This document shows positions 3,918-56,290 of a stretch of DNA of 60,506 nucleotides, piece after piece. This DNA comes from a virus (lineage: Duplodnaviria; Caudoviricetes). The stretch covers positions 1 to 60,506 of the IMG/VR virus record IMGVR_UViG_3300010412_000013; one strand, given 5' to 3'. A model generated the notes under the pieces. That model did not search any database. It saw nothing but the letters and a program-made list of their open reading frames with translations, and had not been told where the DNA came from. The position numbers and the translations under genes were made by a program. Position 1 is the stretch's first letter, and each line of letters starts with the position of its first letter.

Positions 3918-4333
3918 TGATTCGTTTTGGTGAATTCAGGGAATCCTTGCTGTCTGAGGAAAACGACCCATTTATTACCCAACAGGATTTGATAAATCTT
4001 GAGAAGATGCTCGACAATTTGTATAGCAAGTTGGGTATAGATGTTGAATTCACCAAACACTTCCTTGATAGGGTCAACGACATTCGTAACGTGACCCAAA
4101 TCAGGTTGAGTGAATTATCAAACCTCTTTAAAAAAGAGTTTCTGAAATTTGGTGATGTTTTGGCTGATATTAAGGATGGGGTTGAGGCAGTTTTGTTTGA
4201 TGTATCATCCAATATTAATATACCGTTTGTAATGAAATGGAATCCACACACAAAAGAAATGGAACTTGTGGCAAAAACTGTCATGAGAAAGAAAAATTTC
4301 TTGACACAAAATAAACGCTATACAGTAAGATAA
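3917..4333 (+). CDS. Conserved phage protein, possible BECR/RelE-like RNase fold, with capsid-targeting-like leader
   Basis: MIRFGEF..LLSE leader; VEFTKHFLDRVNDxRN and terminal VAKTVMRKKNF resemble BECR-fold proteins. Confidence 0.4.
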   Translation: MIRFGEFRESLLSEENDPFITQQDLINLEKMLDNLYSKLGIDVEFTKHFLDRVNDIRNVTQIRLSELSNLFKKEFLKFGDVLADIKDGVEAVLFDVSSNINIPFVMKWNPHTKEMELVAKTVMRKKNFLTQNKRYTVR

Positions 4334-12281: not shown

Positions 12282-12424
12282 GGGCATTTTAAATAATTTG
12301 AAATGTCTTTAATGGAATTAAACCTATTCTTGAAACCGCTACACCGGCAAGTGTAAATCCCCCAAAAGCAAAAGTCTAGTCCAAATGGATTATATCCAAA
12401 TCACCACTTTGGACTGAAATAATT

Positions 12425-12492: not shown

Positions 12493-12897
12493 ATGAGTTT
12501 TCCCTATGATGTTTTAACCGTTCAAGAAGTCATTTTAAACGAGACCGAGTATCAGGAATCCTCTATCGAGAATCCTGTGAAGCCTGATATCTGGTTTTTT
12601 GTATTGGTTCGCAAGTGGCTTTTCTTTAAGAAATGGTATGCGACACCGGTAACGCGCCATGCCAATGCCGTGAGGGAACATATTGCCAATGGAGGCAAAT
12701 CTGGAGAACTGTTTCCGCCATTCTTTTCTGAGGGAAAATCTGTGGATTTGTGCAAGGGCTATTTTAACAAGCGTTTGCAGACCGAAATATTGACTGCCTG
12801 TGGTGTCTATATTTTGAGAAAGCAGGAAGATAAAACGAGAAATGTACTCGATTCCCTTATAAAGGAGTTGAGCAAATCGGAGAATAAAACCGAATGA
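12493..12897 (+). CDS. Hypothetical protein
   Basis: ORF after promoter; ATGA overlap with primase. Confidence 0.5.
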   Translation: MSFPYDVLTVQEVILNETEYQESSIENPVKPDIWFFVLVRKWLFFKKWYATPVTRHANAVREHIANGGKSGELFPPFFSEGKSVDLCKGYFNKRLQTEILTACGVYILRKQEDKTRNVLDSLIKELSKSENKTE

Positions 12898-13931
12898 GTC
12901 TATACACAGATTCATATTACATCAATCTGCTATCACCCAAGCTGAGAAATTTCAGGCGCAAGGATAAGAACACTTGGAATTTCTCATGCCCATTGTGTGG
13001 TGATAGCAAGAAAGACCTGAAGAAAGCCAGAGGTTACATCTTTCAGAAGAAAGGTGGACTTTTCTTCAAGTGCCATAATTGTCAGCAAGGTTTGAACATG
13101 GCGAACCTTATCAAGGCTGTTGACCCGATATTGTATGACCAGTACGTCATGGAAAGGTTCAAGAATGGCAATGTGAGAGATATCAGGAAGAGTGATATTG
13201 AAACTGTTGTAGACTACAAGGCACCGGTATTCAAGAAGGTTCATGAAGTCTTGCAGGGAATGCAAAGGGTCAGTTCGCTTGATTGTGACCATCCGTGTCG
13301 GGTCTATGTGGCTAAACGCAAGATACCCGAAGCCTACTGGCGTGACCTGTGGTGGTGCGAAGACTTCAAGACTATTGCCATGCGATTGTCGAACGATAAG
13401 GAACGCTACAAGAAACTGCCTGAGAACGATGCCAGACTGGTGATAACCTTCCTGAATGAATCTGGCGAGCTTATGGGAATACAGGGAAGAACGATTGACC
13501 CAAACAATGACCTTAGATATATAACCCTAAAGGTCGATGATAATGTGCCAAAGATATATGGTCTCGACAAGGTTGACAGAACCAAGCCGGTCTATGTGGT
13601 TGAGGGACCTATCGATTCGATGTTTATCCCGAACTGTGTGGCTATGGCATGTTCAGCACTGGATACTGTTTCGGAGTTTGTTCCGAAAAAACAGTGTATC
13701 TTGATTCCTGACAGGGAACCGAGAAACAGGGAAATTGTGAACCAGATAAAGGGTTTTGTTGACGACGGTTGGAAGGTTTGTCTTATGCCCGATAGCCTGA
13801 AGTCAAAAGACATCAACGACTATATACTGAAAGACGGATTGACCCAAGATGAATTATTGGAAACCATTGAACAAAATTCTTCCGTTGGTCTTAGCCTGAA
13901 ATTAAAATTTGCTGATTGGAAAAAGGTGTGA
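12894..13931 (+). CDS. gp61: DNA primase (T4 gp61)
   Basis: Zn finger CPLCGDS...KARG...FKCHNC; TOPRIM VVEGPIDSMF, DREPRN, KDIND. Confidence 0.95.
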   Translation: MSLYTDSYYINLLSPKLRNFRRKDKNTWNFSCPLCGDSKKDLKKARGYIFQKKGGLFFKCHNCQQGLNMANLIKAVDPILYDQYVMERFKNGNVRDIRKSDIETVVDYKAPVFKKVHEVLQGMQRVSSLDCDHPCRVYVAKRKIPEAYWRDLWWCEDFKTIAMRLSNDKERYKKLPENDARLVITFLNESGELMGIQGRTIDPNNDLRYITLKVDDNVPKIYGLDKVDRTKPVYVVEGPIDSMFIPNCVAMACSALDTVSEFVPKKQCILIPDREPRNREIVNQIKGFVDDGWKVCLMPDSLKSKDINDYILKDGLTQDELLETIEQNSSVGLSLKLKFADWKKV

Positions 13932-20317: not shown

Positions 20318-20689
20318 ATGAGCCTTTTTAACCAGAAAGATAAATTCATTCTTGAACAGGCGGTCTATCGTGCCGCCGATGTTCATGTGCCCGAATACAA
20401 TGGTGGTCAGTGGCTATGGCATGAAGACTTTGGCTGGTGGGAACCTGTTTTCGATGGCAAGGTCAAGGTCGAAGGTCTGAACAATTACTACTCAGGCGAA
20501 ATGGATGCCAAGACACTTGGTCTGGCATTGTCTACCCTGTTGCAGAACCACCTGTCATGGAAGTATGCCGAAGAAGGTGGCTTTGATGAAAGCCAGCGTT
20601 GGAGCGAACACTTCTATTCATTGCGTAATCACGCGATGGAAGTTCTGAATGATGACCAGTTGTCAGAATACTTTGCGTTTCTTGATTGA
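20318..20689 (+). CDS. ArdB/KlcA-family antirestriction protein
   Basis: EYNGGQW, NYYSGEMDA..LGLA, FYxLRxHA, terminal LD match the ArdB/KlcA pattern. Confidence 0.7.
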   Translation: MSLFNQKDKFILEQAVYRAADVHVPEYNGGQWLWHEDFGWWEPVFDGKVKVEGLNNYYSGEMDAKTLGLALSTLLQNHLSWKYAEEGGFDESQRWSEHFYSLRNHAMEVLNDDQLSEYFAFLD

Positions 20690-21980: not shown

Positions 21981-22247
21981 GCATTAGACTACGGAGAGGC
22001 GATGATGCCTAGTGTACAATTACAAAAGATGACACCAACAAGTTGTATCGTCTGCTGAATGAATTTATTGGAAACAACTAAATATGTTTCCTAAAGTAAC
22101 TCTCTATGGGAGTAATGGAAAATGATTGGGCAAGTTGTGGGGAGCTTCGTGCTTTTCCTGATTTTTGGTGGTCTGGCTACCAGCATCGCATTGCTGGCTG
22201 TTGTAGCGAACCGAGCCATCAAGGAAAAGAAAGACGAATAAACATTG

Positions 22248-22278
22248 GACTGGTAAGTTACCAGTCATTTGCTATAAT
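22248..22278 (+). promoter_or_regulatory. Promoter (extended -10 TGcTATAAT) overlapped by perfect palindrome GACTGGTAA-G-TTACCAGTC
   Basis: 9-1-9 inverted repeat at 22248-22266; TATAAT at 22273-22278. Confidence 0.6.
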
Positions 22279-22306
22279 GTAATCATGTAGAAAAGGTGAA
22301 ATTATT

Positions 22307-22660
22307 ATGAGCATGACTTTCTGTAATGTACACCAGTGGAAGACCAACCTTGCTGCCGTGCTTGAAGCATCCGGCGAGACCGTCAAACTCGAATGCCCAA
22401 GATGTGCCGGTGAGGGTGTTGAAGAATGTTCAGAATGTGAAAATGAACATGATTGCAAAATGTGTGAGGGTTCCGGTGAAATTGAATATGACAGTGATGA
22501 ATTGATGGCAATCACCAATTCCGGCTATATCAATGACCTTTATTGCAAAGCCATGCTGGATGACATCAAGCGTTTCTGTGAATATGTCAATAAGCCAGAA
22601 CTCGAAAAACAACTGGTATCAGACTTCTTTGGACAACTTGGTAGACTGACCGCCAACTGA
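22307..22660 (+). CDS. DnaJ-type zinc-finger domain protein
   Basis: CPRCAGEG, CSEC, CKMCEGSG. Confidence 0.6.
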   Translation: MSMTFCNVHQWKTNLAAVLEASGETVKLECPRCAGEGVEECSECENEHDCKMCEGSGEIEYDSDELMAITNSGYINDLYCKAMLDDIKRFCEYVNKPELEKQLVSDFFGQLGRLTAN

Positions 22661-22667
22661 GTGATAT

Positions 22668-22857
22668 TGTCATGCCTTTGAAAAGCGTGAACCGAACACA
22701 AAGCCTGCAAGCTGAGGTGTGACGGACTCTATAGAAATGTGGTGATTTGGCACCAACCAAAATCGTTGCAGAGTTTTTTGACTGTAGCCAGATAAACCGC
22801 AATTTTCAAAGCACAGGATATACAAATAGACCTGTGGCGCTTTTCAAAGGCATGGCA
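22668..22857 (+). ncRNA. Candidate structured ncRNA (~190 nt)
   Basis: Perfect 17-bp terminal inverted repeat (22671-22687 / 22838-22854), extendable with G-U pairs; several internal hairpins; intergenic. Confidence 0.55.
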
Positions 22858-22889
22858 CGATTGGTAACGCTTTAATATGGGTGATTTTT

Positions 22890-23096
22890 ATGGCACAGCG
22901 AAAAAAATTCTATAGTGTTTCATACGATGGCATGTATATGGGTGGCATAGCCATAGTGGTTGCCACAAGCCCAGACGAAGCCATCGAATTGGTCAGGAAT
23001 CATCCACAAACAGTCAATTTTGATAGCAAACAAGTTCCGCCTTATGTTACAGAAATAAAAGGTCCTGTTCTTTATAACGATACTGGTGATTATTGA
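22890..23096 (+). CDS. Hypothetical protein
   Basis: GGTGA RBS; IVVATSPDEAIEL motif common in small phage proteins. Confidence 0.5.
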   Translation: MAQRKKFYSVSYDGMYMGGIAIVVATSPDEAIELVRNHPQTVNFDSKQVPPYVTEIKGPVLYNDTGDY

Positions 23097-23246
23097 AAAT
23101 GAATACTCTATCCGGCACCTTGTTGATTGTGTTTGGCTGTATATCATACATCATGACACCCGTCATGTTTGCCAATCTTCCAGCCATATTGGGAAGCCTT
23201 TATGTGGTTGGGCTTGGTGTTCATGTGATGGATGGGGTATAAAAAA

Positions 23247-23909
23247 ATGAACAAACCAATCATCCTTGCTGACATTGACGGTTGTCTTTTGCAGTGGTTG
23301 TCAAAGATGCCGGAATTCCTGATGAAGAAAGGCATCGACCCGACAAAGGCTCGTGAATGTTTTGCCAGTGGCGAATACCTGACAGCCGCACAGATTCTTG
23401 GACTTCCGTCTGACCAAGCCATGGAACTTGTCAGGGAGTATAACTCGTCTGTCTATATGCGACACCTGACACCCTTCAAGGATAGTCTGGCTGTTGTCAA
23501 CCTTCTCAAAGAAGAATTCGACTTTGTGGCAGTCACTGCCATGGGAACCCATCCGCTGGGTGCCGAGTATCGAATGGAAAACCTGCACTTCTGGTATCCC
23601 AATGCATTCAAGGGAATCCATGTGGTTGACCTTGGCGAATCCAAGTACGACATCCTGAAAGAGTACCACAAGACCTTCTTCATTGATGACACGCCGAAGC
23701 ACATCAAGGAAGCCAAGGATGCCGGTCACATTGCTATCAGGATTGTTCGTGACAGCCGACCTGACATAACGAACTCTGTAAGGTTTGATTCCTTCCATGA
23801 GATTGGCTCGTTTATTGAAATGCACAAACACATGTCAAAGCCTCAGCAATTGGTTTTGCCGCCTTATTTGAAAATGTTTGAACCGTTGGGGGAAAGTCAA
23901 CTTGGCTAA
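23247..23909 (+). CDS. HAD-family 5'-nucleotidase-like protein (T4 gp30.2-like)
   Basis: ILADIDG motif I, VTA motif II, SK, FIDD motif IV. Confidence 0.8.
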   Translation: MNKPIILADIDGCLLQWLSKMPEFLMKKGIDPTKARECFASGEYLTAAQILGLPSDQAMELVREYNSSVYMRHLTPFKDSLAVVNLLKEEFDFVAVTAMGTHPLGAEYRMENLHFWYPNAFKGIHVVDLGESKYDILKEYHKTFFIDDTPKHIKEAKDAGHIAIRIVRDSRPDITNSVRFDSFHEIGSFIEMHKHMSKPQQLVLPPYLKMFEPLGESQLG

Positions 23910-35352: not shown

Positions 35353-35631
35353 ATGCCTAAAGTGAAATTTTATGTTCTGCAAGACACAAAATCCGGTTCA
35401 TTTTTTGGGCGCACTGTACCGTCAGAAAAAATCAGGCGCTATGCAAAAGACCTTTCTGATGAACCGGAGTTTTTCCATTCGGTCAAAAGCGCAAAGCAGT
35501 GTGCCAGAATAAACGAAAAGACATCATACCATCCAAATGGATACTGCAATGGTTTTGACCCCTATACGCCTGACTTCAAGGTCATGGAAATCGAAGCCGA
35601 CTTGTCTTCCTCACTGAAATATATTCCATAA
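35353..35631 (+). CDS. Hypothetical protein
   Basis: GAGGTG RBS. Confidence 0.5.
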   Translation: MPKVKFYVLQDTKSGSFFGRTVPSEKIRRYAKDLSDEPEFFHSVKSAKQCARINEKTSYHPNGYCNGFDPYTPDFKVMEIEADLSSSLKYIP

Positions 35632-35633
35632 CC

Positions 35634-35641
35634 AATAAATA
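35634..35641 (+). promoter_or_regulatory. Late promoter AATAAATA
   Basis: Directly upstream of a lone leader-bearing gene. Confidence 0.55.
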
Positions 35642-35673
35642 CCGGAAAGCCTAACGCAATCCGGTATTCTCAC

Positions 35674-36258
35674 ATGAAGCAATTCAAAGAACTCAGGCAG
35701 GAAGCCGACCAACACAAGAACCTGACAGAATCCTTCAAGAACCTGTTCGACAAGGATTCCGAAGAACGCAAGAAATATGCTGGCGAAGTCTGGAACATCC
35801 TGCAAACATCCTACGCCAAGATAGGTGGCATCAAGGGAAACGGTTTCAGGTCGATTGATGACATGATAGCCAGCATACCCTTCTGGAAGCTATCCATCCG
35901 CAATGGCATCGTGACAGCCGTGGCAATGTACAAAGACACCAATGGAAGGAAGCGTGTCGCCATAGGAACCAATGGAACCCCGCAGGGCAAGTCTGATATA
36001 GCCAATATCCTAGTGGCTGATATGCGTCAATACAGAGCCTATGCCGAAGTATCCGATGCATCCCTGAAGTTCATCAAGAAGCAGTTTTCTGAACAGGAAA
36101 TGGCAAAGTATTTCGTGCCAGTCGAGGTTGTCCAGAAGAAGGTTTTCCCTTATGAAGAAATCCGACCAGTTGACAAATTCAGCTACATGAGAAACATTGG
36201 TGGCGAATGGAAAGAGAAGGTCATGATTGGCAATGTCAATGCCCCAAGAATCCAGTAA
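35674..36258 (+). CDS. Conserved T4-like protein with capsid-targeting-like leader (possible GNAT-like fold)
   Basis: MKQFKEL...LTE; VWxILQxSYxxIGG, WKL, MYKD..GRK, EVS. Confidence 0.55.
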   Translation: MKQFKELRQEADQHKNLTESFKNLFDKDSEERKKYAGEVWNILQTSYAKIGGIKGNGFRSIDDMIASIPFWKLSIRNGIVTAVAMYKDTNGRKRVAIGTNGTPQGKSDIANILVADMRQYRAYAEVSDASLKFIKKQFSEQEMAKYFVPVEVVQKKVFPYEEIRPVDKFSYMRNIGGEWKEKVMIGNVNAPRIQ

Positions 36259-36268
36259 CACTTTGGAC

Positions 36269-36297
36269 TGGATTTTTTGATTGCTGATGGCTATACT
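36269..36297 (+). promoter_or_regulatory. Early/middle-type promoter TGGATT-N17-TATACT
   Basis: Intergenic, upstream of exonuclease. Confidence 0.45.
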
Positions 36298-49547: not shown

Positions 49548-50027
49548 CTAGCCGAGTTCATCTTCAGTGAATATCAGGAAACCCATGTTCTTTTTTATGC
49601 AGTAGGCTTCGGCTGCTGTCCACTTGGCTTGATTGACTTCATAGGTCAGGCATTCATTCAGGTATTTTTGAGTGACCTTGCTTTTCTTCTTTGGTGGCTT
49701 GGTCTGGGCTTTTGGCTTGACTTCTATCAGGAATTCCTTGGTTCCTGTTGTGGTTTTTACCTTTATCCAGAAGTCGACAAAATATCGATGGTACTGCCCA
49801 TCCTTTGGTGATATATAAGGTATGATGCATTCTTCTGATGACCATTCAAGTACACTAGGGTTCTTGTCACAATAAATCATGAACTTGAGTTCCCATGAAC
49901 TGCGATAGACGATGTTTTTCCAGTCTCCCCTATACTTCATAGGGTTTCTTATGGGATACCTTCCCTTATAGGTTCCTCTGTATCCCCTGTTGAACCTTGT
50001 CTTTTTTTTCTCTTGTTCAGTAATCAT
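49548..50027 (-). CDS. gp4: Head completion nuclease gp4
   Basis: YKG.Y...NP.KY.GD...I.YRSSWE, WSSEE, HRYFVDF, IEVKP, NQAKW.AA, TEDEL; start reassigned to 50027. Confidence 0.92.
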   Translation of the reverse strand: MITEQEKKKTRFNRGYRGTYKGRYPIRNPMKYRGDWKNIVYRSSWELKFMIYCDKNPSVLEWSSEECIIPYISPKDGQYHRYFVDFWIKVKTTTGTKEFLIEVKPKAQTKPPKKKSKVTQKYLNECLTYEVNQAKWTAAEAYCIKKNMGFLIFTEDELG

Positions 50028-50028
50028 A

Positions 50029-50061
50029 CATAAATAGTTTTGTGTTTTAACGATATTTAGG
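50029..50061. promoter_or_regulatory. Face-to-face late promoters: CATAAATA (+, 50029-50036) and CCTAAATA (-, 50054-50061)
   Basis: Both lie in the 44-nt gap between divergent gp4 and gp48. Confidence 0.5.
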
Positions 50062-50071
50062 TACAACTGCC

Positions 50072-51070
50072 ATGGCAGACAATAAAACCAAAACCCAGAA
50101 ATTGGTTGATAAGGCAAAATCAAATCCCTATCAGAAATACCGCACATTGATATATCCTAACGAACTTGGACAACCAACCGAGGGGCATACCAATTATATG
50201 CTCTTTAATATAAATTCTACAGTTTACCAGTCATCCGGAACATCCGATGCCAAGGATTTAGGCGGAAGTGTTGGTATCGTTACACAGTCCCCAACCGGAA
50301 GAAACCTGAACTATAACGTAAGTAATTTGGGGAAAATTAAAAAACCCATACCAAGAACCAATGTTTCCATTGCCCTTCCGATGACAGAAACCAGTGTCGG
50401 CGCAACCTATGATGCTTCATGGTCAAGTATAGATTTGGGTGTTGCGGGTGGAATGAAGGTAATGGGAACAAGTGTTACCGATGCTGCCAAAGAAATGGCT
50501 GAAGAAATTCAAAAAGGTTCTACATTTGCCGCAGAATTTGAAACAGCAAAAGCTGGAATTTCATCCAATGTTAGCCTTGGTCAGGTGGGTATTGCTGCGA
50601 TGCAGGCAGTTATGGGAGAACAAATAACACAGGCATTCAAACTTATACCAGACAGACAGGCAGAAAATGCCAGACAGGAAGTAATATTCAAGTCTGTATC
50701 AAACAGGACATTTTCGTTTAAACATACACTGGTTGCAAAATCACCACAAGAAGCAGAAACAATCCAAGCCATCATAGATACATTCAAATACGCAATGATG
50801 CCAAGCCTGCTTGGTGGTCAGAATGGTTATTTCGGATACCCTGATGAATTTGACATCACTTTCTGGCAAGTAGATGGCAATGGCAATGTAAGGGAAAACG
50901 ACTACATCCACAAGATATCAACCTGTGCATGTACGAAGGTCGATGTTGATTATGGTGGTGTAGGTCGTTATGCTGTCTATTATGATGGAAGACCTGTCGC
51001 CATCACATTGAACCTGTCATTCACAGAGCTTGAATTCCTGACAAAAGAACGAATCGAGGAAGGCTTCTAA
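50072..51070 (+). CDS. gp48: Baseplate tail-tube cap gp48
   Basis: L.YP, F....RTFSF...L..KS.QEA..I..II..FK..M.P, YPDEF, L.F.E.E.LT...I..GF. Confidence 0.85.
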   Translation: MADNKTKTQKLVDKAKSNPYQKYRTLIYPNELGQPTEGHTNYMLFNINSTVYQSSGTSDAKDLGGSVGIVTQSPTGRNLNYNVSNLGKIKKPIPRTNVSIALPMTETSVGATYDASWSSIDLGVAGGMKVMGTSVTDAAKEMAEEIQKGSTFAAEFETAKAGISSNVSLGQVGIAAMQAVMGEQITQAFKLIPDRQAENARQEVIFKSVSNRTFSFKHTLVAKSPQEAETIQAIIDTFKYAMMPSLLGGQNGYFGYPDEFDITFWQVDGNGNVRENDYIHKISTCACTKVDVDYGGVGRYAVYYDGRPVAITLNLSFTELEFLTKERIEEGF

Positions 51071-51570: not shown

Positions 51571-52913
51571 CAGATACAAAAAACCCAACAGGTCTATACC
51601 AGTATGAATTGGTGACTCTGAATATTATCAGTCATTCGGGGAAACGTATCAATATACTATCGATGTTCAGTGGCATTCTTATTGAAGAGGATTTGTTTTC
51701 GGCTGGTATGCATGGCGCGATATCCATCAATGATGCTACTGGATTGGCTGATACACTTCCGATTATAGGTCAGGAAAAACTGGAAATTGCATGGAAGACA
51801 AAGGGAGAAGATATTGAACCCATCGAATTGACATTTGATGTTATCAGTATTGTCGGGAGAACAAAACTAAAGAAGAGAATGGAAAACTACACATTGGAAT
51901 TCATTTCGCCCGAAGTGAATGTGAACGCAAAAACAAGGGTTAGCAAATCCTATTCCGGAACCGCATCGGATATTGTCTCGGAGATTTTCATAAAAGACCT
52001 GAAGTCCAAGAAGAGACTTACGGTTGAACCGGCAAAACACTTTCAGCGTTTTGTTTCTCCCCACATGAGACCTATGCAAGTCATTGATAATATTTCAATG
52101 GGTGCTGTGTCTGCCGCTGTTGGAACTTCCAAGAAAATGGGAGCAACCTATTTGTGGTATGAAACTACTCGTGGTTTCTGTTTCCAGACTCTTGAGCATT
52201 TGTTCACACTGGATTCTGTCAAGACTTTCAGCATGACACCAAGTTCAGTCGTCAGGGATGAAAATGGTCTAAGGAATATTGATTTTGAATCAAGGGAAAT
52301 CAAATCGTTTTCTGTTGTACAGTCATTCGATACACTCAACAAAACAAAAGAGGGTATGTACGCAAATACAACAATCATGCATGACCCAATCAATAAAACG
52401 ATTGAGGAATATGACTACAATTATATCAGGGATTATGAAAATCATTCGCACCTTGAGGGCAATATAAAATCAAGTATCATTTCTTCTGGTTCGGGAAATT
52501 CTGTGAAGAGTACCGGTGGCTTCATGTGTTCTCCCTATGTTGATGAATATGGAATGACTATCAGCGACTATACAAAAAGTGTTATAATCCTGCACCCGAA
52601 GGCAACCCGTCTGTGGGATGATGTCGACAGTGACCATTCGGAAGAATGGAAACCAAAGAGACGACCGCACATGGAGCAATTAAACAGTTTCGAGGTCGAG
52701 ATATCAATCATTGGTGATTCGGAAATACAGGTCGGTGATGTCGTCGAACTTTTGATACCCACAAGCGATGTTGTCGAGGGTCAAGCCAATATTTATTCTG
52801 GGATAATGTCCGGAAGGTATCTGGTGACAGCAATCACCCATTCATTAGGTCTGACTGACTATAGCCAGAAGCTGATTTTGAACAAGGAATCACTGGTGGT
52901 TCCCATAACCTGA
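51567..52913 (+). CDS. Baseplate hub protein (gp27-like)
   Basis: I.EDLFS..M.G...I.D, LPIIGQE, GD....GD.V, SGRYLVTAI.H; follows gp53. Confidence 0.7.
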   Translation: MTDTKNPTGLYQYELVTLNIISHSGKRINILSMFSGILIEEDLFSAGMHGAISINDATGLADTLPIIGQEKLEIAWKTKGEDIEPIELTFDVISIVGRTKLKKRMENYTLEFISPEVNVNAKTRVSKSYSGTASDIVSEIFIKDLKSKKRLTVEPAKHFQRFVSPHMRPMQVIDNISMGAVSAAVGTSKKMGATYLWYETTRGFCFQTLEHLFTLDSVKTFSMTPSSVVRDENGLRNIDFESREIKSFSVVQSFDTLNKTKEGMYANTTIMHDPINKTIEEYDYNYIRDYENHSHLEGNIKSSIISSGSGNSVKSTGGFMCSPYVDEYGMTISDYTKSVIILHPKATRLWDDVDSDHSEEWKPKRRPHMEQLNSFEVEISIIGDSEIQVGDVVELLIPTSDVVEGQANIYSGIMSGRYLVTAITHSLGLTDYSQKLILNKESLVVPIT

Positions 52914-52941
52914 ACTACTGTATAGCCTTACAGTAGTTTTT
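52913..52941 (+). terminator. Rho-independent terminator
   Basis: AACTACTGTA-tagcct-TACAGTAGTT followed by T run. Confidence 0.75.
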
Positions 52942-52997
52942 GGTTATAATAATCTCGATTCTTATTCGAAACTATTCTAAAAATAATCACCCATTTT

Positions 52998-53046
52998 CTT
53001 GCGATATGGCATGGTTCGACTATAATTATATCGTGAATGAATGATA
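52998..53046 (+). promoter_or_regulatory. Early-type promoter CTTGCG-N17-TATAAT with GTGAATGAATGATA
   Basis: Near-duplicate of the -10/leader block at 19983-20011. Confidence 0.65.
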
Positions 53047-53067
53047 TTGATTATGGAGACTGAGAAT

Positions 53068-53865
53068 ATGTCTGATTTAAAAATTCCTTTCGGCAAGTAC
53101 CGTGGTCATAAATTGGCTCATGTAGCCATTTCTGACCCATCGTATGTCACCTATCTGGCTGGCATAGCCGACCCAAGACCCAATGGCGTTGCCGTTGTGG
53201 AAGCTGCCAAGGCTCTGGTTGCCTCTGGTCAAGTGGTTGTTCAACCCAGCTTCGATGGCGTTGCCCCCAGCAACCCAGCCGATGTTGTTCTGGCTTTCGG
53301 CAAGTACCGTAACTATCGTCTGGGTGAGCTTGCTGCCCGTGACCCGTCTTATATCGTGTACCTGTCGAACATGACCGATGCCAAGGGCGCGAATTCTGCC
53401 TTGGCTATCGCTGCCAGCAAGAAGCTGGTGGCTGAGAAAGCCATTCCTGAGCTGGTGGACTATCTGGCTGACAGGGAAGAAACCAACAAGTTTTCTTCCA
53501 TCATCAAGCAGAACTCTGACTATCAAGGTCAGGTGGGCGACCGCTTCGAGCGCGAAGTCAAGGTTGTCTTTGTTCGTCACATGGGCTATGCTTCCTATGG
53601 CTACCATGGTCATCATGGTGCTGCCAAGTATCTTGTGGTTGCTGTTGACAAGCAAGGCAACAAGTACAACACCTTCACGTCTTCTGAATGGGTTCAGGAA
53701 GATGGTGTCGAGGTGGGCGACATCCTGAAGATTACCGGAACCGTGACCCGTCACGAAGAAGAAAAATACGGTGCCCTTGCCGGTGCCAAGACCACTGTCC
53801 TGAACCGTGTCAAGGCAGTGTTTATCAAGAAAGTAAATGTTGAACAAGAAGCTGAAGTGGCTTAG
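53068..53865 (+). CDS. Two FGKY (DUF3820/exonuclease X C-terminal-like) repeats plus OB-fold-like domain
   Basis: PFGKYRG...DPSYV.YL twice; C-terminal G.VG.R...GD.L.I.GTV..H...T.LNR. Confidence 0.6.
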   Translation: MSDLKIPFGKYRGHKLAHVAISDPSYVTYLAGIADPRPNGVAVVEAAKALVASGQVVVQPSFDGVAPSNPADVVLAFGKYRNYRLGELAARDPSYIVYLSNMTDAKGANSALAIAASKKLVAEKAIPELVDYLADREETNKFSSIIKQNSDYQGQVGDRFEREVKVVFVRHMGYASYGYHGHHGAAKYLVVAVDKQGNKYNTFTSSEWVQEDGVEVGDILKITGTVTRHEEEKYGALAGAKTTVLNRVKAVFIKKVNVEQEAEVA

Positions 53866-55795: not shown

Positions 55796-56290
55796 ATGGA
55801 ACCTGATGGTGTTGTTATTGATGAAGTGAATGAGCGCGAAGAAGCCTACAAGAAACTTCTGGAATTCATGACCTTTGCCAGTTCTGAACATTTCAGGGCT
55901 GTGGCTATGGAAACTGCCAAGTCGAATCCGACATTCTTCATAAAGGCACTTGAGAAGAATGGATATTCTTTTGATGATGCCGTTATTAAAAATAAGGCAC
56001 CGTTATCTGATAGCAAAAATCCTGTCAATTTATTCCATCCAGAATATGGCACTGTGGCAATTATGTTGAAAGATATTTTACCGATTGCCTATCATATTAA
56101 AGAAACAAAAAAGGTTAATGCAATCAAGGCTTTCAGGGAAGTTACGGGTTTTGGTCTGAAGCAAGCCAAGACCTATTGTGATTCTTTTGAAGACTGGCTT
56201 GTTAATGTTGGGCTTTACCATATCAAGAATAGTAATCAAGAATTGATTCATGAAATTCAAAAACTTTCATTTACCATAAATCTGAGGTAA
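55796..56290 (+). CDS. Protein with ribosomal L7/L12 C-terminal-like domain
   Basis: KKVNAIKAFREVTGFGLKQAK. Confidence 0.65.
   Translation: MEPDGVVIDEVNEREEAYKKLLEFMTFASSEHFRAVAMETAKSNPTFFIKALEKNGYSFDDAVIKNKAPLSDSKNPVNLFHPEYGTVAIMLKDILPIAYHIKETKKVNAIKAFREVTGFGLKQAKTYCDSFEDWLVNVGLYHIKNSNQELIHEIQKLSFTINLR

Follow-up and report, generated by a model that had tools for sequence, protein, structure and literature searches.

A perfect 17-bp inverted repeat closes a non-coding intercistronic element in a T4-like marine phage: a candidate RNase III-type processing domain

Excerpts from the literature on RNase III describe the idealised substrate of the E. coli enzyme as a 22-bp helix, i.e., two helical turns, and attribute five RNase III signals to the early mRNA of phage T7 (PMC3867540), while the stems that flank the 16S and 23S rRNA are reported to be cut in the same way (PMC6582327). 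In a review on post-transcriptional control in phage T4 (PMC3014915), as listed in the literature search, the term 'RNase III' has 0 occurrences, and within the scope of these sources RNase III processing is a T7 paradigm and not an established theme in the T4-like group. In T4-type phages, two other sources (PMC2839356, PMC4122927) describe promoter-early stem-loops (PeSLs), which are short multi-copy direct repeats composed of an early promoter and a local hairpin, and modular shuffling is known to occur at such small promoter/stem-loop cassettes. Putative viral invertons have been proposed as well (PMC13501310). In the following, an inverted repeat located between two small genes of an uncultured phage is described and compared with these systems, as well as with miniature mobile elements and with structured RNAs that are closed by a long terminal stem.

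The element was found in an IMG/VR virus record (60,506 bases, estimated completeness 27%), which was analysed over its whole length and is hereafter called the window. The phage is uncultured and marine and, judging from its genes, a distant T4-like myovirus. The 85 ORFs of the window were searched against Pfam (24 of these also against PHROGs), and matches were obtained for gp32, the gp59 helicase loader, a gp33-type late-transcription coactivator, baseplate proteins (T4_baseplate, gp53), PhoH, thymidylate synthase and a class II ribonucleotide reductase. The phage tail protein is ~25% identical to its counterparts in cyanophages and in Vibrio, Pelagibacter and Methylophilales phages, relatives of the primase are only 41% identical and lie on contigs of 7–8 kb, and the sequencing runs containing the stretch are labelled as marine sediment metagenome, no RNA run being among the 6 that were found.

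The two arms of the element (22668–22687 and 22838–22857) are 20 nt long, 95% complementary and separated by 150 nt. Both the sequence and the repeat search agree with the perfect 17-bp stem (22671–22687 with 22838–22854) that had been proposed in an earlier reading of the sequence alone (hereafter the original prediction), and its extension by G-U pairs on both sides was also recovered: on the + strand, the RNA helix comprises 21 contiguous pairs (22668–22688 with 22837–22857; mean pair probability 0.97), 19 of them Watson-Crick and 2 G-U (22670-22855 and 22688-22837), and 3 more pairs are predicted beyond a 2x2 internal loop. A window-wide scan for inverted repeats (12-nt seed) found only the element and one 15-nt pair at lengths of at least 14 nt within 600 nt. 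The longest perfect inverted repeat in the window measures 17 nt; when the window was shuffled 100 times, the longest one averaged 12.5 nt and never exceeded 15 nt, and the repeat is beyond chance. A 9-mer core of the arm occurs three times in the 60.5-kb window, each time inside the element, and its third copy could serve as an alternative pairing partner or as a third binding site. The element is single-copy in the 60.5-kb record (~27% of the genome), where no solo arm was detected at up to 3 mismatches either. The features of the locus are collected in Table 1.

Table 1. Positions of the features at and around the inverted repeat, numbered from the first base of the window; hairpins are predicted
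Feature	Position	Strand	Description
Hairpin and extended -10	22248..22279	+	Likely start of the read-through transcript; consensus match only
Upstream gene	22307..22660	+	117 aa; two DnaJ-type CxxCxGxG zinc-finger repeats
Shared 81-nt patch	22604..22684	+	~88% identity with contigs from runs of two other studies
Left arm (5' strand of closing helix P1)	22668..22688	+	Perfect core 22671-22687; pairs with 22837-22857
Hairpin P2 (predicted)	22692..22725	+	Three helices of 3, 4 and 3 bp; pair probabilities 0.90-0.99
Hairpin P3 (predicted)	22734..22807	+	Long, interrupted; helices of 4, 6, 7, 2, 5 and 2 bp; two G-U
Third copy of arm 9-mer core	22803..22811	+	Direct to right arm; complementary to 22676-22684 (left arm)
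Hairpin P4 (predicted)	22812..22836	+	cacagg/cctgtg with 3-bp extension; 6-bp helix probability 1.0
Right arm (3' strand of closing helix P1)	22837..22857	+	Perfect core 22838-22854
Downstream gene	22890..23096	+	68 aa; start 33 nt after the helix; GGGTGA before start

A 206-nt stretch containing the element has a predicted folding energy of -75.9 kcal/mol on the + strand (z = -6.6, 200 dinucleotide shuffles) and of -63.8 kcal/mol on the - strand (z = -4.2). When the window was scanned with 2413 overlapping 200-nt windows, corrected for G+C, that of the element was the most stable on the + strand (z about -4.4), while 8–9 of the 2413 were more extreme than it on the - strand. In the predicted + strand fold the arms close a four-way junction carrying three hairpins (P2 to P4), and the core helices of P3 (22738–22751 with 22787–22801) have predicted pair probabilities of 0.97–0.98. 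Among the interior hairpins listed in the original prediction, cacagg/cctgtg is part of the minimum-energy fold, but tggtg/cacca, ttgcag/ctgtag and gcct/aggt are local alternatives that are replaced in it. Folded alone, the interior (22688–22837) gives z = -2.7 on the + strand (2 of 300 shuffles were as stable) and z = -1.1 on the - strand, and 6 of 90 randomly chosen native 150-nt windows reach a z of -2.68 or lower. Similarly, the advantage of the + over the - strand amounts to 11.8 kcal/mol and is equalled or exceeded in 294 of the 2413 windows. As the interior z and the strand asymmetry both shrink on calibration, what stands out is the repeat itself. At the DNA level such a perfect repeat is symmetrical, and on its own it is no indication of RNA. 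The G-U extension had been taken as favouring RNA structure over DNA, an argument that we do not retain, since it involves only two pairs, which may just as well have arisen by two transitions in a DNA repeat that was once perfect; by our estimate, such a pair of transitions would give two G-U pairs about one time in ten. In duplex DNA, cruciform extrusion is unlikely with a 150-bp spacer, and any role at the DNA level would therefore depend on recognition of the arms by a protein.

The element is non-coding, as originally described. Under a codon-position Markov model, for which 27 long ORFs of the window served as the training set, each of its six frames has a negative coding score (-5 to -10 per 100 nt), compared to +3 to +5 in frame for the flanking genes. 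The ORFs of 42, 51 and 71 aa lying inside the element had no PHROG match at E up to 1, and a hidden small gene was rejected on both counts. No tRNA or tmRNA was predicted at the element. The Rfam check suggested together with the original prediction agrees with its statement that no known family could be recognised: no Rfam 15 family reached its gathering score anywhere in the window, and the best E-values in a local search of 22550–22950 were 1.8–9 (RMST_2, mir-24, snoU85), far below threshold. A cobalamin or other riboswitch was rejected, as no Rfam match was found and a 21-bp P1 would be too stable to switch. Retron msr-msd, 6S and Y RNAs are similar to the element in being RNAs of 100–200 nt with a long stem closing their ends. 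A retron, however, needs an adjacent reverse transcriptase, whereas the neighbours of the element encode a 117-aa zinc-finger and a 68-aa protein, and since none of the 85 ORFs matched the RVT family, the idea of a retron ncRNA is left without support. The other comparison made at the outset, with a 6S-like mimic, is not supported either: the element has no Rfam match to 6S, Y RNA or YrlA, and 6S RNA is a rod with a central bubble, while the element is predicted to fold into a four-way junction.

The repeat lies in a 229-nt intergenic gap (22661–22889) flanked by two + strand genes, within a block of small co-directional genes, all neighbouring genes having the + strand orientation. The helix begins 8 nt after the stop codon of the upstream gene, whose 117-aa product has weak zf-AtTam37 and Anti-TRAP Pfam matches below the cut-off; only the protein itself was found among 5.8 billion proteins, and no match was obtained in viral contigs or metagenome contigs, nor by tblastn in GenBank phages. 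Just before this gene stands a sigma-70-type promoter match with an extended -10 (TGnTATAAT; TGCTATAAT, 22270–22278), directly preceded by a hairpin (22248–22266, GACTGGTAA-G-TTACCAGTC), an arrangement reminiscent of PeSL cassettes in T4-type phages. No convincing promoter was detected from the right arm to the next start codon. Inside the element there is no promoter of at least 10 of 12 matching positions, and the + strand candidate TATAGA (22730–22735) was rejected, as it lacks the final T and has no -35; the - strand of the segment carries a sigma-70-like match of 9/12 (TTGAAA-17-TACAGT). The terminator scan returned nothing on the + strand at the element. From the co-directional genes, the promoter upstream and the lack of one after the right arm we infer that the element would be transcribed within a polycistronic message, in line with its original assignment to an early transcription unit, and as the 68-aa gene has no plausible promoter of its own after the element, read-through seems to be needed.

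The 68-aa protein unexpectedly connects a marine T4-like phage with T5-like phages of enterobacteria, with hypothetical proteins of 45–49% identity in 228 T5-like (Demerecviridae) phage records; the homologue in Yersinia phage phiR2-01 lies in the tRNA region, with a gap of only 60 nt before it. A 225-aa protein farther downstream had no match in viral or metagenome contigs. The same small early gene block also contains a gene for an ArdA-type antirestriction protein (20318–20689; PF03230, E = 3.3e-6; phrog_10132). A short motif, (C)TTTGGAC(T), is present at 12405–12416, 22241–22252 and 36259–36270, i.e., upstream of -10-like boxes in three intergenic regions (spacing 22, 23 and 33 nt), as well as at 22625–22634, and it may be part of the early promoter or cassette signature of this phage.

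Phage, viral, prokaryote and metagenome collections were searched for homologues. No match to 22300–23100 was obtained with blastn in 50,697 phage records, the exact 17-mer of the arm is absent from 2.9 million viral contigs, the arm-pair pattern is absent from the same contigs and from 185,579 prokaryote genomes, and the stem pattern of P3 has no exact match in the 2.9 million viral contigs. A covariance model of the element, searched against the window plus 4 loci, recovered only the element and its reverse complement. A 20-mer of the interior matched one Chitinophagales MAG, which was discarded as a chance match, given that the flanks are unrelated and ~1 such match is expected. In the likely source run, a contig of 1194 nt is identical to 22149–23342. 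Contigs from the other studies' runs share the 81-nt patch listed in Table 1, with 9–10 differences in 81 nt, which covers the last 19 codons of the 117-aa gene and most of the left arm, leaving out the innermost 3 nt of its perfect core; past 22684 both contigs are unrelated to the window, for at least 67 nt in one and 321 nt in the other. The 3' end of the 117-aa gene and the left arm thus stay linked in the relatives, the arm travelling with the upstream gene, and the element sits at a mosaic junction. At the other side, variant contigs in three runs join the 225-aa gene at 23245 to different upstream sequence. Given the break at 22684 and these alternative joins, 22685–23244, which comprises the interior, the right arm and two small genes (68 aa and 47 aa), behaves as one exchangeable module. 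Among the assembled contigs of three other runs none covers 22685–23244, no second assembled contig matches the interior at 80% identity or more, and no strand-changing joint is listed in these assemblies, which drop minor variants. Short patches upstream (22095–22169, 22193–22233 and 22210–22299) recur in unrelated contexts as well, the last of them in short contigs of other runs with divergence on both sides. Such fine-scale mosaicism, with patches of 40–90 nt common to otherwise different contigs, is the more solid by-product of the analysis, and as far as the contigs allow a comparison it resembles the shuffling in hyperplastic regions of T4-type phages.

The explanation that we prefer, though only tentatively, is that the element represents an intercistronic RNA domain of the + strand, closed by a helix in which an RNase III-type enzyme cuts. 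An early polycistronic transcript, begun at the sigma-70-type promoter near 22270, would cover first the 117-aa gene, then the element and finally the 68-aa gene, and if the RNA folds in the cell as it does in the prediction, the arms would close the 21-bp helix around the four-way junction with its three hairpins. This helix could then be a substrate for the double-strand-specific RNase III of the host, and a staggered cut in it would uncouple the upstream from the downstream message, give the latter a processed 5' end and free a branched RNA of ~150–170 nt, closed by the inner part of the stem, by an excision as in rRNA precursors and akin to the cutting of T7 early mRNA. RNase III sites are characterised by a regular helix of ~20–22 bp, and the element offers 21 contiguous pairs. 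It shares with the RNase III stems of T7 early mRNA and of rRNA a helix of about two turns between functional units of what would be a polycistronic transcript, and with the 16S and 23S rRNA stems it has in common that the two strands are far apart (by 150 nt here) and enclose structured RNA. It differs from the T7 sites, which are local hairpins with internal loops, in being a predicted long-range stem, and it belongs to a T4-like phage. The original proposal of a multi-branch RNA released by RNase III therefore stands as far as the length of the helix and the predicted branched fold are concerned, but the strand-specific part of its support turned out weak upon calibration. The lack of homologues in any of the collections searched, together with these weak strand-specific hints, speaks against RNase III processing, as does, in the contigs compared, the end of the relatives' similarity inside the left arm, with the interior left unmatched at 80% identity or more. 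The association of RNase III processing with T7 and not with T4, as far as the sources cited above go, weighs on the same side.

An RNA reading of the element is plausible on the modelled fold, and if it is true, the locus would be a case in which a T4-like marine phage has a small branched RNA excised from an early message in the manner of rRNA. Its interpretation as a novel ncRNA is likewise possible from the model. We consider it very improbable, though, that it represents a new family of phage ncRNA, in which a four-way-junction RNA of ~170 nt would be excised from the early message and act in trans, for instance as a decoy; its target would be, for example, a host RNA-binding or defence protein, and the RNA might cooperate with the DnaJ-type zinc-finger protein whose gene lies immediately upstream. 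The element was also compared with the PeSLs, with which it shares a location in a T4-like block of small orphan genes where relatives differ, and a PeSL-like hairpin with promoter is located 400 nt upstream of it (22248–22279). The element itself was rejected as a PeSL, as it is 190 nt long and single-copy, with inverted arms and no convincing promoter.

The mosaic junction also lends itself to a reading without any function, which we regard as only slightly less likely than RNase III processing, namely that recombination or template switching left the repeat behind as a by-product. In T4-type phages, small genes are shuffled where short stretches of sequence are common to both partners, and the 3' flank of the upstream gene may have been brought in, or templated, as an inverted copy together with the insertion of the module carrying the 68-aa and 47-aa genes. 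The relatives' break so close to the inner edge of the perfect arm, the alternative joins at 23245 that make 22685–23244 exchangeable and the nearby patches that recur elsewhere are all what such a history would leave, modular shuffling is documented in T4-type phages (PMC2839356, PMC4122927), and no strand-specific RNA signal stays significant after calibration. Homologous exchange, however, acts on direct repeats, which makes a perfect 17-nt inverted copy with a wobble extension an unusual outcome, the third copy of the arm 9-mer inside the element suggests a repeated motif and not a single accident, and the whole stretch is the most stable + strand fold in the window. A further reading is a structure that acts as RNA but independently of RNase III, by protecting the upstream message from 3' exonucleases or by attenuating or insulating the read-through into the downstream genes. 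We consider this unlikely, although it draws on the same structural evidence (z = -6.6, the 21-pair helix), the helix begins as close as 8 nt past the upstream stop codon, and the sequence right after P4, GCGCTTTTC, is a tail that weakly resembles a terminator. No U-run follows the closing helix and the terminator scan is empty here on the + strand, the 68-aa gene without its own promoter after the element seems to need read-through, and no homologue was found in the collections searched.

A DNA element recognised by a protein, either an inverton (a promoter segment flipped by a recombinase) or a MITE-like non-autonomous element, is improbable as well. Perfect inverted repeats of ~20 bp around a segment of 150–200 bp just upstream of a gene are the geometry of invertons, to which the 17–20 bp arms and the ~150 bp between them conform; after inversion the - strand match TTGAAA-17-TACAGT would face the downstream genes, the three copies of the 9-mer could be protein-binding sites, and in the relatives the same arm could be followed by another interior. 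Invertons also need a site-specific recombinase nearby, but the only promoter match inside the element is a weak one, and no invertase or other recombinase, transposase or reverse transcriptase was found in the window among the 85 ORFs compared with Pfam and the 24 compared with PHROGs, the record being a fragment of ~27% of the genome. With MITEs and ultra-small phage mobile elements, the locus shares terminal inverted repeats around a short non-coding interior. In contrast to these, it has a single copy in the window, belongs to no family in the collections searched and shows no target-site duplication: neither the flanks of the 20-nt arms (...GAGTGATAT and CGATTGGTAA) nor those of the 17-nt arms (...ATATTGT and GCACGAT) form an abutting direct repeat. 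The original prediction had named multiple copies with target-site duplications as what would speak for a MITE, and neither was observed. Solo arms with up to 3 mismatches are likewise absent from the window and the arm pair from the 2.9 million viral contigs and 185,579 prokaryote genomes, and the homology of the relatives runs from the gene straight into the arm, unlike at an empty site, the left arm being continuous with the conserved flank.

Several other features of the window were recorded. A 460-aa protein (34–1416) combines weak RNA-ligase and cytidylyltransferase-like matches, and a 164-aa protein (55796–56290) matches the C-terminal domain of ribosomal protein L7/L12 over a short stretch (E = 2.4e-6). 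A 199-aa protein with a TnsA-like endonuclease N-terminal domain (E = 6.6e-22) is encoded on the - strand at 49551–50147, at the edge of the baseplate/tail block, where its gene overlaps the start of a divergent ORF at 50072; the protein possibly represents a mobile endonuclease of the free-standing type. At 52914–52945 there is a clean hairpin of the intrinsic-terminator type (ACTACTGTA...TACAGTAGT, then TTTTT), with two CTATAAT-type boxes after it, and the surrounding 52876–53075 is the second most stable + strand window in the fold scan. Other very stable 200-nt windows lie at 3926–4125 (+), 12876–13125 (both strands) and 35476–35750 (-), with z from -2.66 to -3.42 in the G+C-corrected scan.
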